This document shows, piece after piece, positions 8,392 to 61,418 of a DNA stretch of 64,000 nt. Under the pieces are notes generated by a model. That model was not told where the DNA came from. It saw only the letters and a program-made list of their open reading frames with translations, and did no database searches. The DNA comes from Chitinivibrionales bacterium (GTDB lineage Bacteria > Fibrobacterota > Chitinivibrionia > Chitinivibrionales > FEN-1185). Every line of letters starts with the position of its first letter. Positions within the stretch are counted from its first letter, which is position 1. Location: NCBI GenBank assembly GCA_035516255.1, contig DATJAL010000047.1:25198-89197 (forward strand), read 5' to 3'. The translations under genes and the position numbers were made by a program.

Positions 8392-8440
8392 TAAACGGGG
8401 GTTGTCGATACCCCAAATCCCAAAGAATGCTACTTAAAAT

Positions 8441-8480
8441 CAGGGCACCCCGGCGCGGCATCCGGTCCTGCCTGGCGCGC
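8441..8480 (-). repeat. Truncated 5' fragment of the family-A element
   Basis: The reverse complement GCGCGCCAGGCAGGACCGGATGCCGCGCCGGGGTGCCCTG aligns to the first ~45 nt of copy d (GGCGCCAGGCAGGACTGGAGGCCGCGCCGGAGCGCGGTGCTGCC). Confidence 0.4.
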
Positions 8481-8634
8481 GGCAATCAGTCAACTACCGC
8501 ATTTGTCAACCCCTTGTCAAAATTAAACGCATCAGCAGCCAGACACCACCGAGGGCCAAGAAAGTAAAAACAAAAATTTTACCGCAGAGACACAGAGAAG
8601 GCAAAAAGATATTCCTGAAGTAACCCGTGTCGGC

Positions 8635-8724
8635 TATAATATCACCGCCGCATCCCCGCTGCACTTTTTTGCTTTACATTGGGGACGAGGCGGAAGCCGG
8701 GGGCCAGCGGGAAACTTCCCCCAC
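8635..8724 (+). repeat. X hairpin module preceded by a TATAAT box
   Basis: Sequence is GGCTATAAT-ATCACCGCCGCATCCCC...GGGGACGAGGCGGAAGCCGGGGGCCAGCGGGAAACTTCCCCCACC. It belongs to the same family as 24217-24310, 53444-53530 and 57467-57556. Confidence 0.5.
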
Positions 8725-39791: not shown

Positions 39792-39922
39792 TGACTTTAA
39801 ACTAAATTATCCCATGGGAGAAAATTCAAGTATAAATTTGTATTGCCGTATATCAAACCATAACACGCGTGGGACAAGCGATTGGTCAGGGTTGTCGATG
39901 AATTATTGACAAATGTCCGACC

Positions 39923-40116
39923 GGCGCCATTATAGTCTGTTGGCTAACCAGAATTCCGCCGCCGCGTTAGGGGCGACGGAGGGTGCGCTGGAGCGCATTG
40001 CCGGCCGACCCCGCCGCAAGGCATCGGGGCGGTCCGGCAACGAGGCAATTAGCCGAGCCCGGAGGAGAACCGACCCGAACCTGAGGTTTACCGAAGGTGA
40101 GGGGAACGCCCATCTT
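39923..40116 (+). repeat. Family-A multi-helix GC-rich element, copy a (candidate structured RNA)
   Basis: 194 nt from GGCGCC to GGGGAACGCCCATCTT. It shares module order and helices with 52899-53082(-), 57100-57279(-) and 61264-61400(+). Hairpins include TGCGC-TGGA-GCGCA, TTGCCGG...CCGGCAA, GCC-GCAA-GGC and GGC-AATTA-GCC. Confidence 0.55.
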
Positions 40117-40293
40117 TTCCAACTACGATTGCTATAGTAAGTATTATGCCCCCCCAAATATTATTTTAGGTGACCAGTTTACAGCGCTCTTTTTATCTGG
40201 GGCGGGACCCGTGTGCCGGAGAGATGCCGGTCAAGGGGTCAGCCGGTTTCCCGATAGTATTGCTGGCGAGCTTTACCGACAGGATATTGTATC

Positions 40294-51660: not shown

Positions 51661-52806
51661 TCACATCGCCTGCACCTGCAGCGATACCCTCAGCCCGTTC
51701 AGTCCCGACACCGCGATGCTGCCCGCGCCCGACTTCAGCTTGAACCCGTCGATGCGTGTGCAGAAGCCGTTCGCGTTGCCCTTGTACTGCAGGTCGACCA
51801 TGAGCAGCTTGCTCTGCATGTCCCAATTCCGCTCGTGCACGGCCGACACGTTGGGCACCCACGTGAGCGTCTGGATCAGGTCGTTCTTGAGCCGGAAGGT
51901 GGAAACGCCGCTGATGGTGATCGACAGGGTCATGCCGTTGTTCTGCTGGTTGTTCCACTCCTTTACTATTTTGTCAAGAAGGTCCCTGATCGCCTTTTGC
52001 GACGCCTTGGCGATGGCCTGCGTGCCGGCCGTGTTGGCGCTGACGTGCACCATGGCCGCGTGCTCCTGCGCCGTTCCCATGATGCTCCCCGTGGTGCAAT
52101 TGATGGCGCGGAGCGTCACGTCGGCCTGCACCGACACCATGCCGCCTAAATTCTGGTTAAGGTTCTTTGCCTCCCTGCTCACCGCGCTGCCCGTGATGAT
52201 CACCTCCGCGCCGCTCTGCGTGCCGAGCTGGGCCGCTGCCGCCACGTCGCCGGCGATGCTCGCCATTTTTTCCTGCGAGGCGCGGATTGCGGCGCTCGCC
52301 TTCGGGTCGACAAGATCGAATTCGTAAGGATCCTTCAGGAACTGGAGAATGGTCGCCTCGGCCGACGAGTTGGTGGGCTCCCCGGTCCCCACGTTGTTCT
52401 CGTCGATCACCACCATGGTGCGCGGCTTGTTCATGGACTCGATGAGGATGTGAAACGCGGCAAGGTCCTGGGTGATGGAGCTTTTCGAGAGCACGGCCTT
52501 GATCTTCACTTCATAAGACCCGGCCTCGCTTTTCCCTTCCGAGATTTTTTCGTAGCTTTTCACCGAGCCGATGGTCTTGGTGATGATCTGGTCTTTTTTC
52601 ACCATGAAATTCTCGATTTCGGTCTGCGAAAGAAGTATGGTGCCGATGCCTTTCTCAATGGCGTTGCGCTTTGCCGCCAGAAGCGCCTCTTCCGGGTTCG
52701 CCCCTTCGCCAAATCCCTCCGCGACAATGGTTTCGTCCTGGGCAAGAACTAGGCCGGCGCCGAAAACAAGCAGGAACCCCGCGCACAGCGCAATCATTTT
52801 CCGCAT
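51661..52806 (-). CDS. Secreted protein/lipoprotein with LPP20-like N-terminal domain
   Basis: ATG 52806 is preceded by GAGGAGGA. Signal peptide MRKMIALCAGFLLVFGAGLVLA. The N-terminal AEGFGEGANPEEALLAAKRNAIEKGIGTIL pattern resembles LPP20/FlgO-type domains. Confidence 0.5.
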   Translation of the reverse strand: MRKMIALCAGFLLVFGAGLVLAQDETIVAEGFGEGANPEEALLAAKRNAIEKGIGTILLSQTEIENFMVKKDQIITKTIGSVKSYEKISEGKSEAGSYEVKIKAVLSKSSITQDLAAFHILIESMNKPRTMVVIDENNVGTGEPTNSSAEATILQFLKDPYEFDLVDPKASAAIRASQEKMASIAGDVAAAAQLGTQSGAEVIITGSAVSREAKNLNQNLGGMVSVQADVTLRAINCTTGSIMGTAQEHAAMVHVSANTAGTQAIAKASQKAIRDLLDKIVKEWNNQQNNGMTLSITISGVSTFRLKNDLIQTLTWVPNVSAVHERNWDMQSKLLMVDLQYKGNANGFCTRIDGFKLKSGAGSIAVSGLNGLRVSLQVQAM

Positions 52807-52898
52807 AGCAATCCTCCTCTTTGTGACCGGAAACAACGGTGAAAGTATGAATATATATTATCTCAAAACTGGTGGCCTGATGTCAATAGTCTATAAGT

Positions 52899-53082
52899 AA
52901 AGAGGCGGGCGTTCCGCGGCTTCGCCACGGCGGCCGTCCTTCCGGTCTCGCCTTTGGCTCGGGCTGCCACGGCCCCTGTATGCCTTCAGCGAGGGCCGGG
53001 CAGCACCGCGCTCCAGCACGGCCTCCAGTCCTGCCTAACGCGGCGGCGGAGTTCCAGTTAGTCAACGCACCATCGTGGCGCC
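52899..53082 (-). repeat. Family-A element, copy b
   Basis: The reverse complement runs GGCGCCACGATGG...CCGCCGCCGCGTTAGGCAGGACTGGAGGCCGTGCTGGAGCGCGGTGCTGCCCGGCCC...GGGGCCGTGGCAGCCCGAGCCAAAGGCGAGACCGGAAGGACGGCC...GGAACGCCCGCCTCTT. Its core is about 90 percent identical to copy d. Confidence 0.55.
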
Positions 53083-53110
53083 AATCGATCGTTTGCAGCG
53101 TCAAGTATGA

Positions 53111-53156
53111 CCTCACCCCGGCCTTACAGGCCACCCCTCTCCGAATTGGAGAGGGA
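53111..53156. repeat. Family-C REP-like hairpin
   Basis: CCTCACCCCGGCCTTACAGGCCACCCCTCTCCGAATTGGAGAGGG. Confidence 0.45.
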
Positions 53157-53272: not shown

Positions 53273-53530
53273 TATACTATTTGTCTTTTTCCGCCGTGTA
53301 AAGCTTGACCTGCCGCAGGCGGATGGTAAGCCACCCGGGTCCCCGCACACCACGAGACTCCGGCGCCAAAGAGGGGGTGTGCATATAAAATCTTCAATCA
53401 ATATTTTCTCCCTCTCCCATTGGGAGAGGGCGGGGTGAGGTCTGATCACCGCCGCATCCCACGGCAGTGTTTGTCTTGACATATGGGATGCGGCGGAAGC
53501 CGGGGGCCAGGGGGGAGACTTCCCCCACCG
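53273..53530 (+). repeat. Y-X module (with TATACT box and an inserted family-C REP)
   Basis: Parts in order: TATACT (53273-53278); TCCGCCGTGTAAAGCTTGACCTGCCGC...CGGCGCCAAAGAGGGGGTGTG; REP at 53408-53440; a 13-bp perfect stem CCGCCGCATCCCA / TGGGATGCGGCGG; GGGGGA-GACT-TCCCCC. Confidence 0.55.
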
Positions 53531-57099: not shown

Positions 57100-57279
57100 A
57101 AGATGGGCGTTCCCATTCTTGCTTTACATAGACACAATTATCATGGCGCCTGCCGGTCACGGTACCGTGCCTCCTTCCGGGCTCGGCTAGTCGCCTCGTT
57201 GCCGGACCGCCCGAAGTCGCCTTCGGTGAAGGGGTGGCCGGCAATTCGCTCTTGCTCACCCTCCAGTCCGCACTGGCGC
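57100..57279 (-). repeat. Family-A element, copy c (ends 28 nt before the ABC-F start codon)
   Basis: The reverse complement runs GCGCCAGTGCGGACTGGAGGGTG...TTGCCGGCC...CGAAG-GCGA-CTTCG...GGTCCGGCAACGAGGCGACTAGCCGAGCCCGGAAGGAGGCACGGTACCGTGACC...GGGAACGCCCATCTT. Confidence 0.55.
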
Positions 57280-57355
57280 AAAACATCATCCTGCGTATTT
57301 TGTTAATCTGGATTTCAAATTCTGACAGGAACGAACTGTCAGAAAATGTCAAAGC

Positions 57356-57556
57356 TATAATATTTTATCTTCATCCGCCGTGTAAAATTTGCGCTGCCGC
57401 CGCTGTCTCGCCAGCCACTAAGTATCTCCGCAAATCATGGGTGTATCGGCGCCAAAGAGGGGGTGTGGGTGCAGATCGCCGCCGCTTTCATTTTCATTTT
57501 GGATTAGCGTTGTGGAAGCGGCGGAAGCTGCACCCCAGGGGGAGACTTCCCCCGCC
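57356..57556 (+). repeat. Y-X module with TATAAT box, upstream of zur
   Basis: Parts in order: TATAAT (57356-57361); TCCGCCGTGTAAAATTTGCG...CGCAAATCATGGGTGTATCGGCGCCAAAGAGGGGGTGTG; a long hairpin GGGTGCAG-ATC-GCCGCCGCTT...AAGCGGCGG-AAG-CTGCACCC; GGGGGA-GACT-TCCCCC. Confidence 0.55.
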
Positions 57557-57576
57557 AGAAAAACACAATGTTTTTC

Positions 57577-57615
57577 AATTGCAACTGACTTGCATTTAAA
57601 TTTATATTGCAATTC
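57577..57615 (+). promoter_or_regulatory. Candidate Zur/Fur-family operator
   Basis: An AT-rich segment 20-60 nt upstream of the zur ATG carries the inverted repeat TGCAA-N5-TTGCA (57580-57594) and the palindrome ATTGCAAT (57606-57613). No consensus for this lineage is known to me. Confidence 0.25.
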
Positions 57616-57635
57616 AAGGAATTGCAGGAATCATC

Positions 57636-61180: not shown

Positions 61181-61263
61181 GGTCAGACCTTTTCTATTAC
61201 CCCACATTTAGAATAGGATACTTTGCAAACGACACTAAAAAAACCACCACATTACCTACTGGT

Positions 61264-61400
61264 GGCGCCAGGCAGGACTGGAGGCCGCGCCGGAGCGCGG
61301 TGCTGCCCGGCCCACGCCGTTAGGCACATAGGGGCCGTGGCAGCCCGAGCCGAAGGCGAGACCGGAAGGACGGCCGCCGCCGCGCTTCGCGGCGGGGCGC
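61264..61400 (+). repeat. Family-A element, copy d (shortest, 137 nt)
   Basis: GGCGCCAGGCAGGACTGGAGG / CCGCGC-CGGA-GCGCGG / GCTGCCCGGCCC..GCC-GTTA-GGC..GGGGCCGTGGCAGC / CCGAG-GCC-GAA-GGC-GAG / ACCGGAAGGAC / CCGCCGCG-CTT-CGCGGCGG / GGCGC, followed by a T-rich tract. Confidence 0.55.
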
Positions 61401-61418
61401 ACAGTTCTTTATTTTTTA

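Follow-up and report, generated by a model that had tools for sequence, protein, structure and literature searches.

Structured repeats in bacterial spacers have been described in several forms, and they set the background for Family A, the element reported here, which is present in four full copies in a 64,000-nt stretch of contig DATJAL010000047.1 (the window, always meant at its full length). REP/BIME/REPIN sequences occur in hundreds of intergenic copies, with convergent spacers over-represented, and form mosaics with other motifs as well as inverted doublets; compensatory changes keep their hairpins, and the same spacers hold different variants in related species. REPs themselves measure 20-40 nt, each a single imperfect palindrome that carries a GTAG-type tetranucleotide on its 5' side; they are tied to RAYT genes and serve as mRNA 3'-end stabilizers and terminator-like elements. 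The Correia/NEMIS, ERIC, BOX, RUP and bcr1 elements are intergenic, multi-copy, 100-200 nt long and sometimes internally deleted; they have a predicted RNA fold, are co-transcribed with their neighbors and carry clear terminal inverted repeats, usually together with target-site duplications. Elements derived from IS200/IS605 and the guide-RNA scaffolds of TnpB and IscB display strand-specific folded ends and neither inverted terminal repeats nor duplications, and the TnpB/IscB-type scaffolds are ~150 nt of structured sequence whose conserved part stops abruptly at the 3' boundary. For the TwoAYGGAY RNA (RF01731) of Pseudomonas, the median per genome is 11-23 copies and the maximum 202, its nearby pairs are divergent in 68% of cases, and GMTBT repeats lie upstream of it in fixed orientation (bioRxiv 10.64898/2026.09.22.753630).

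Family A shares the listed behaviors of the REP group and resembles REP/BIME in genomic behavior; in sequence and architecture it resembles nothing curated. Its core is 133-175 nt long, with seven helices and long invariant unpaired strings, in contrast to the short REP palindromes, and no RAYT gene was seen near the copies. With the Correia-type elements it has size, intergenic position, copy number, predicted fold and occasional internal deletion in common, but in place of their inverted repeats it has only a 5-bp closing helix. As in the IS200/IS605 and TnpB/IscB groups, inverted terminal repeats and duplications are lacking, the fold is strand-specific and conservation stops abruptly on the 3' side; however, tnpA, tnpB and iscB are not adjacent, no Rfam IS605-orfB or HEARO match is obtained, the 3' flank is U-rich rather than a diverse guide, and there is no conserved 5' target motif. 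The likeness to TwoAYGGAY extends further: both are multi-copy, structured and non-coding, show covariation, have no assigned function, vary in copy number between relatives and are associated with other repeat modules, and both display divergent pairs (68% there, 9/9 here) and oriented upstream repeats (GMTBT there, AGTTGA here). The two nevertheless differ, as the RF01731 model matches no Family A copy, Family A has no AYGGAY loops, two hairpins on a basal stem stand against seven helices closed by the helix P1, the hosts are Pseudomonas and Fibrobacterota, respectively, and the estimated density of Family A is higher.

The architecture of the core emerges from flank profiles of 138 distinct copies, in which conservation begins abruptly at (C)GCG[UU/CC]AGG and ends at [AA/GG]CGCCCA followed by RNU. 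A 5-bp helix P1, either GCGUU/AACGC or GCGCC/GGCGC, closes the core and leads into the purine-rich junction AGGNNGGACUGGAGG, which can be written AGGNNGGAC(U)GGAGG. Hairpin H1 comes next, with a 6-bp stem and an NNGA loop; copies of the a/c subtype close it with a G-U pair, and some of them, copy c included, add tandem G-A pairs. It is followed by a long three-part stack, P3-P3a-P3b, capped by a GNRA or GNA loop, by the short hairpin P4 inside a CCGAG...CGAG bracket that yields tandem G-A pairs, and by the string ACCGGAAGGAGG, in the form A/C-CCGGAAGGAG(G). A possible 3-bp P5, unproven since its changes are one-sided only, and the variable hairpin H5 (15-60 nt) complete the fold before the 3' strand of P1, CCA and ~15 nt of U-rich sequence. 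In the DNA this tail is T-rich and G-poor: from -1 to +14 after CGCCCA, T accounts for 50-80% and G for no more than 10% at most positions. The original prediction, which had recognized the helices, started the module order with GGCGCC-A and an optional insert of ~40 nt; these turn out to be a separate variable 5' module, and the core starts at GCG(UU/CC)AGG. Closure by pairing of the 5' GGCGCC with a 3' GGCGC/CGCC is likewise replaced by P1. Behind many GCGCC-type copies (L124, L129, L150, L157, L160, L187, L192, L195, L203) a conserved box UUUGAGACAGGCUGNACNUCCCCC is located 25-45 nt past the core, preceded in several copies by a CCCAG..CUGGG hairpin and UUUU.

Covariation provides the main evidence that this fold is real. 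The first fold test relied on a MAFFT alignment of 54 copies in which no structural information was used. Here, 88.4% of cells pair, versus 35-43% when the partners are slid by 1-3 columns, double-sided changes occur in 19 of 40 pairs, and none of 500 shuffles reaches the observed values. In a model-guided alignment of 143 distinct copies, which leans toward the model, 92.7% of cells pair (36-46% when slid) and 34 of the 40 pairs show double changes. Transversion swaps are found in many pairs, for instance G-C in 111 copies and C-G in 19, C-G in 101 and G-C in 30, or G-C in 75 and C-G in 45, although the copies form subfamilies, so that cell counts overstate the number of independent events. 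The two inner pairs of P1 are U-A in 97 and C-G in 40 copies, and U-A in 94 and C-G in 41, with almost no mixed cases. A divergent copy in locus L030 even alters a P1 pair that is otherwise invariant (GCAUU/AAUGC) and keeps the junction strings. The presence of distinct pair types at individual positions, together with the slid controls, indicates that the helices are selected, and selection on the seven-helix fold is strongly supported. Helices H1-H5, proposed from four copies, covary in both larger alignments although their sequences differ, and the non-coding character assigned to them holds as well, with single-base indels separating the copies.

The fold is also specific to the given strand. 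Minimum-energy folds of the 143 copies contain 66 GNRA tetraloops and none of the reverse-complement class UYNC, and their triloops are mainly C-GAA-G (57), C-GCA-G (21), C-AAA-G (17), C-GUA-G (9) and C-GGA-G (8). The G-U closing pair is fixed in 30 copies, and the tandem G-A pairs would become pyrimidine mismatches on the opposite strand. The GNRA bias, the fixed G-U pair and the tandem G-A pairs therefore point at selection acting on this strand in single-stranded form, and the simplest reading is that the folded strand is most likely RNA.

The family is large and previously undescribed. A scan of the whole window with Rfam 15 at the gathering score returns only one tRNA gene (34904-34977, minus strand, 51.2 bits), nothing relevant is found at E <= 10 around the window copies, and eight further loci give no match at the gathering score, in line with the earlier proposal of a candidate new RNA. 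Literature searches, in full text for the longest conserved strings and also on repeats of Chitinivibrionia, returned nothing relevant. Resemblances to the GGAA tetraloop region of SRP RNA, a tRNA-like CCA end, glycine/ykkC riboswitch strings and CsrA-type GGA motifs were set aside, as no model supports them. A degenerate pattern of 26.5 bases, which was derived from positions invariant across the four window copies and contains CCGGAAGGA, matches exactly these four copies in the window (0.00 expected from 100 shuffles). The pattern, thus validated, identifies 95 metagenome loci with 101 distinct cores. The loci trace to a few sample sets (contig prefixes Ga0182027/21/28, Ga0335081, Ga0209039, JGI20214J and Ga0181527), which are taken to be peat, bog and wetland. 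A covariance model, R1, built from metagenomic relatives and copies b, c and d, detects 144 copies across the 692 kb of these loci. About 44 of the 144 are extra to the copy by which each locus was selected, which corresponds to ~1 copy per 15 kb and agrees with the 4 copies per 64 kb of the window. A genome of a few megabases would thus probably hold a few hundred copies, a figure extrapolated from locus density, not counted. The GcpE encoded in the window is 100% identical to a protein of a 213-kb contig, its closest named relatives belong to metagenome-assembled genomes (MAGs) of Chitinivibrionales and Chitinispirillaceae, and the host is Chitinivibrionales (Fibrobacterota). The L030 copy, itself of 56% GC, is found inside a named Chitinivibrionales MAG. 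The pattern has no match in viral contigs, and plasmid and phage collections show no similarity to the family.

Orthologous loci, located through GcpE relatives, offer a view of how the copies come and go. In the syntenic locus L216 (82% GcpE identity) the b, c and d sites are filled, and L217 (81%) carries a copy at the c site and two others; a copy precedes the ABC-F gene in the window as well as in L216 and L217. In contrast, L218 (81%; ENA ERZ27254249), L219 (73%; GCA_037447435.1, syntenic) and L220 (70%) show no copy in 14-21 kb each, and L175 has none before its ABC-F gene. Two of the three non-carriers L218-L220 are syntenic with the window, and with GcpE identities of 70-81% all three are as close to it as the carriers. 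Since close syntenic relatives do without copies, the element is dispensable for the neighboring genes and lineage-restricted, and the family is patchily distributed within the order. Where a site is shared, its occupants differ: at the c site the window holds a GCGCC copy of type a/c and L216 a GCGUU copy of type b, and at the b site the window holds type b with a 5' module and L216 type a without one. These different subtypes at shared sites demonstrate that the element is replaced or re-acquired at the same spacers. The empty sites of L175, L218 and L219 could not be aligned to the filled site of copy c, as the spacers are too diverged.

A larger mosaic unit, of which the core forms the 3' domain, is present in ~2/3 of copies. 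The copies remain homologous to each other upstream of the core, in register from about -300 to -75, and not downstream. The upstream segment is common to 78 of 118 copies, 73 of which fall into one cluster. Its 5' start is sharp, at GGUGGGGGAAG..CCCCC.GGCCCCCGGCUUCC following AT-rich DNA, and it holds a helix, GGGUGNCCCC/GGGGCACCC, of covarying length. This upstream module (GGUGGGGGAAG..CCCCC.GGCCCCCGGCUUCCGGCGC...) constitutes a second GC-rich structured repeat without an Rfam match, located 100-300 nt upstream of ~2/3 of cores in the same orientation, in which the helix encloses a CUGCAAGAUUC...UUGACAA loop. Loci that display it include L164, L173, L174, L175, L127, L209 and L216, as well as the window at 53300-53528 and 8691-8710 (both minus strand). 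Within the window it precedes copy b and a remnant and is common to copy c; copies a and d are without it. Directly before the core there is a variable 5' module, which begins (C)GAU(U/C)GGCGC and bears a UUGAC segment, and the true 5' end of the unit varies between copies. The recurrent TTGAC often occupies a hairpin loop, or the one that GGGUGNCCCC/GGGGCACCC encloses, instead of serving as a -35 box. These spacers also contain further recurrent small GC-rich hairpins, such as CCCUCUCC-AAUU-CGGAGAGGG at window positions 53134-53155 (minus strand) and CCCCCUUGAUAAGGGGG upstream of several metagenomic copies (L151, L168, L186, L190 and L209 are listed for such hairpins).

Short AGTTGA repeats accumulate upstream of the cores in sense orientation only, at 0.70 per copy compared with 0.11-0.33; 15 copies have at least three of them upstream, and none has as many downstream. 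Arrays of AGTTGA(A/R) or TTGAC with a period of ~8 nt are located 60-140 nt upstream of cores, again only in sense (L137, L204, L207, L212, L188, L149), and in the window three TTGAC motifs are packed into 32 nt upstream of the remnant (8489-8520, minus strand). All nine core pairs closer than 400 nt are head-to-head, that is, divergent, with spacers mostly of 64-120 nt. Such pairs are found at L157, L195, L146, L137, L194, L125, L189, L168 and L124, and their spacers consist of two abutting 5' modules. A long-range helix, P0, between the 3' CCCAGAU tail and either the GAUUGG(CG) module or the start of the upstream module was not significant in four own-versus-cross tests, although some individual copies look complementary, e.g., L175 with AGUAAAUAA/UUAUUUACU. 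Only ~20% of copies have a hairpin directly 5' of the core, and on average it is no more stable than in shuffled sequences.

The four window copies, with a mean column identity of 63% in the alignment, fall into two subtypes, a/c and b/d. They and the fragment are real and stand at, or a few bases from, the positions originally given; the core limits and scores below come from R1, run with filters off. The core of copy a is located at 39962-40115 on the plus strand (R1 88.8 bits, E 1.8e-19; pattern match); it is of the a/c subtype, with P1 GCGUU/AACGC, the G-U closing pair in H1 and a long H5. Its 5' module (GGCGCC...UGGCUAACCA...CCGCCGCC; 39923-39961, plus strand) is homologous to the aligned 5' modules of other copies and is overlapped by a putative sigma-70-like promoter, TTGACA-16-CATTAT, recognized as a sequence match. 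Copy b, of the b/d subtype, has its core at 52903-53043 (minus strand, 109 bits, pattern match) and a 5' module, defined by sequence and alignment, at 53044-53086 (minus strand), which starts with GAUUGGCGCC at 53086 and contains the UUGAC segment. Copy b terminates a composite unit whose upstream module spans 53300-53528 (minus strand), with a signature match at 53494-53513 and an approximate 3' limit; the module begins with GGUGGGGGAAGUCUCCCCCCUGGCCCCCGGCUUCC at 53528, 30 nt past the stop codon of a radical-SAM gene. Copy d has its core, followed by a T-rich run, at 61263-61406 (plus strand, 104 bits), with a terminator-like site at 61382-61400.

Copy c and the remnant show signs of rearrangement. 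The core of copy c, with P1 GCGCC/GGCGC and tandem G-A pairs in H1, occupies 57140-57281 (minus strand, 88.3 bits); its true 3' end is thus at ~57140 and not at 57100, the limit assigned originally. The intervening 3' extension (57100-57139, minus strand) ends, by its sequence, in a second, solo 3' terminus, GGGAACGCCCAUCUUAUUU. This terminus at 57100-57118 (minus strand) is of the GCGUU type and stands behind a complete GCGCC-type copy, which suggests nested or partly deleted copies; L150 and L187 have comparable GCGCC-type 3' extensions. The spacer upstream of copy c (57282-57635, minus strand, approximate limits) holds the shared upstream module, with in-register homology to 17 other copies, and contains the string GGCGAUCUGCACCCACACCCCCUC. 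The remnant at 8439-8480 (minus strand, 20.8 bits, E = 0.002) is internally deleted: the 5' 22 nt and the 3' 12 nt of the core are joined by 8 nt, so both ends are kept and the middle is gone. An upstream-module signature lies ~210 nt upstream of it in the same orientation (8691-8710, minus strand, pattern match with 1 mismatch), and the two signature matches in the window compare with 0.08 expected. Nothing further in the window is significant by R1, the next-best match reaching 14.9 bits (E = 0.06).

The neighboring genes are diverse. Copy a is flanked by a divergent deaminase gene and a response regulator gene; copy b, the radical-SAM gene on one side of it and the unknown open reading frame (ORF) on the other share one strand; an ABC-F ATPase gene follows copy c, and convergent CinA and DUF218 genes enclose copy d. 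The genes downstream of a, c and b (response regulator, ABC-F ATPase, unknown ORF) are unrelated, as are leuA-like, transporter and fatty-acid genes noted by eye elsewhere. The gaps of 177, 92 and 28 nt to downstream genes, given in the original prediction, are correct for the window and unrepresentative of the family. Among 113 classifiable copies (of 132 outside close pairs), 47 are sense co-directional, 28 convergent, 22 antisense co-directional and 16 divergent; the sense bias in co-directional spacers (47 versus 22, ~2:1, p = 0.0035) is far from the rule, 50 of the 113 have no same-strand gene downstream, and about a third of the informative copies are antisense to both neighbors. From the core 3' end to the next gene the median distance is 31-84 nt, whichever strand the gene is on, versus 265-350 nt on the 5' side, and 42/47 same-strand, 27/28 convergent and 13/16 divergent copies are nearer on the 3' side. 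This asymmetry can be explained by the homology between copies, which continues upstream and not downstream. About 20 copies elsewhere end 17-40 nt ahead of a start codon. Behind copy b, a predicted near-consensus sigma-70 promoter (52857-52886, minus strand; TTGACA, 18 nt, TG-n-GATAAT; 11/12 match, extended -10) sits before a 391-aa ORF, and the same promoter is found at the orthologous gene in L175 and L213. As this predicted promoter lies between them, copy b is likely outside the leader of its downstream gene. The 391-aa ORF itself (51661-52836, minus strand) has no Pfam match and is kept beside gcpE in all syntenic relatives, at 378-381 aa.

We tentatively favor, with slightly less than even confidence, a reading of Family A as a dispersed, mosaic, structured non-coding repeat, whose given strand would fold as RNA, which would place the fold and a U-rich tail at transcript 3' ends, and which would spread without classical transposon scars. 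The unit might be transcribed from its own upstream region or within neighboring transcripts; for an expressed unit, transcripts beginning around GGUGGGGGA or the core and finishing within the U-rich tail would be expected. The GC-rich fold with the tail behind it would then mark a transcript 3' end, as a terminator or as an exonuclease block. Copies may spread, or be exchanged, by recombination or gene conversion between copies or by a single-strand mechanism, with neither inverted repeats nor target duplications. Several observations weigh against this reading. The U-rich tract begins only 4-6 nt past P1, and a simple terminator scan picks out copy d, together with the solo 3' end behind copy c, and neither copy a nor copy b. 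A conserved sigma-70 promoter at fixed distance from the cores was not found, and because about a third of the informative copies are antisense, a role inside host mRNAs cannot be general. The contexts themselves come from a codon-usage-scored gene caller that reproduces the Pfam-supported window genes and was checked against three loci with called genes only. Among mispairs, G-U exceeds A-C only slightly (111 versus 85), and C-GNA-G triloops, especially stable in DNA, would also fit a single-stranded DNA intermediate.

The last two points contribute to the main alternative, which we regard as unlikely: a mobile DNA element, non-autonomous and folded in its single-stranded DNA form, which, like IS200/IS605 palindromes or REPINs, would be moved in trans by a Y1/HUH-type enzyme encoded elsewhere, any RNA effects being incidental. 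Very high copy number, patchy presence among equally related genomes, strand-specific conservation, the abundant C-GNA-G triloops (~95), the near-equal G-U and A-C mispairs, the nine head-to-head pairs, internally deleted remnants and a BIME-like mosaic composition would all be compatible with it. No terminal inverted repeats of ~10 bp or more were found, only the 5-bp P1 in two covarying versions, and there is no consistent target-site duplication (15 shared flank words of at least 7 nt versus 6.9 in shuffles, a slight excess, at variable distances from the ends). This is what single-strand "peel and paste" predicts, and a classical miniature inverted-repeat transposable element (MITE) is rejected on these grounds together with the lack of a transposase-like ORF near 150 copies; the hallmarks named beforehand as fatal to a structured RNA did not appear. 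However, in the loci around 150 copies no ORF family recurs, and no transposase, reverse transcriptase, TnpB, TnpA or RAYT-like ORF was seen; beside the core there is no conserved target tetranucleotide, and the 5' flank shows weak preferences at most (C at -2 in 65%). A fold of seven helices joined by invariant purine-rich strings far exceeds any known transposase recognition hairpin in complexity, its GNRA loops and tandem G-A pairs are of a kind typical for RNA, and the copies show a 2:1 sense bias relative to transcription. The window orientations, + + - - - despite a GC skew mostly of one sign, follow no single replication strand.

A new class of functional RNA expressed from many gene copies, protein-binding (a sponge) or catalytic, is in our view doubtful. 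Its GGA- and GGAGG-rich junctions and UUGAC/AGUUGA motifs would do the work, and its independent units would end at the U-rich tail. The junction strings AGGNNGGACUGGAGG, GAGMCCGGAAGRAGG and GCCCA do not vary as the helices all change, and this holds for the divergent L030 copy as well; such constancy would suit this class but could also result if a few master copies multiplied recently. A unit with a 5' region of its own would agree with the positional asymmetry and the sharp 5' start, close pairs are divergent in the manner of back-to-back transcription units, and AGTTGA is enriched upstream in sense only (0.70 versus 0.11-0.33 per copy); the same behaviors are reported for the Pseudomonas TwoAYGGAY RNAs (bioRxiv 10.64898/2026.09.22.753630). 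Yet there would be no precedent for a single RNA function served by hundreds of gene copies, the search for a conserved promoter gave none, the unit of copy b starts just 30 nt past the stop codon of the upstream gene, and related genomes manage without the element. The original idea of a new structured RNA stands as a conserved multi-helix element, and not as a discrete RNA of 137-194 nt, given ~1 copy per 15 kb, the presence in all spacer contexts and the larger unit. Improbable, too, is the more ambitious proposal of a new RNA-based genetic unit composed of the element, the upstream module and the AGUUGA/UUGAC repeats, independently expressed and self-propagating in a TwoAYGGAY-like manner, whose junctions might bind protein or the ribosome or catalyze, and which might spread via an RNA or single-strand intermediate new to bacteria. 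By far the poorest fit is a cis-regulatory leader, either a riboswitch or a protein-binding 5' UTR element, of the downstream genes, which we consider very improbable. Copies a, b and c do stand before same-strand genes, some 20 others end 17-40 nt before a start codon, the ABC-F site is occupied in the window, L216 and L217, and the fold is complex with conserved unpaired bases. Against this, the downstream genes are unrelated, a same-strand gene downstream is missing for 50 of 113 classifiable copies, copy b comes before the predicted promoter of its gene, syntenic relatives lack the element before the same genes (L175 before ABC-F), and ~1 copy per 15 kb without any Rfam match is unlike a leader. 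Family A is not a ligand-sensing leader of adjacent genes, and the early doubt about a simple 5' riboswitch is borne out by the wider contexts (47/28/22/16) and the copy-free syntenic relatives.

If the reading of Family A as a dispersed structured repeat is right, a covariation-supported family joins the small set of high-copy structured non-coding elements of bacteria, and it would be the first such element described from Fibrobacterota and from a peat/wetland habitat. Its architecture, with seven helices, invariant junctions, a mosaic unit and head-to-head pairs, is far more elaborate than that of REP or MITE hairpins. The family also calls for caution, as a few copies preceding genes are no ground for calling a riboswitch. 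In these MAGs the covariance model can be used to mask or annotate hundreds of spacers per genome, and as a lineage marker. The TwoAYGGAY-like genomic behavior of the family hints at a wider class of repeat-associated structured RNAs.

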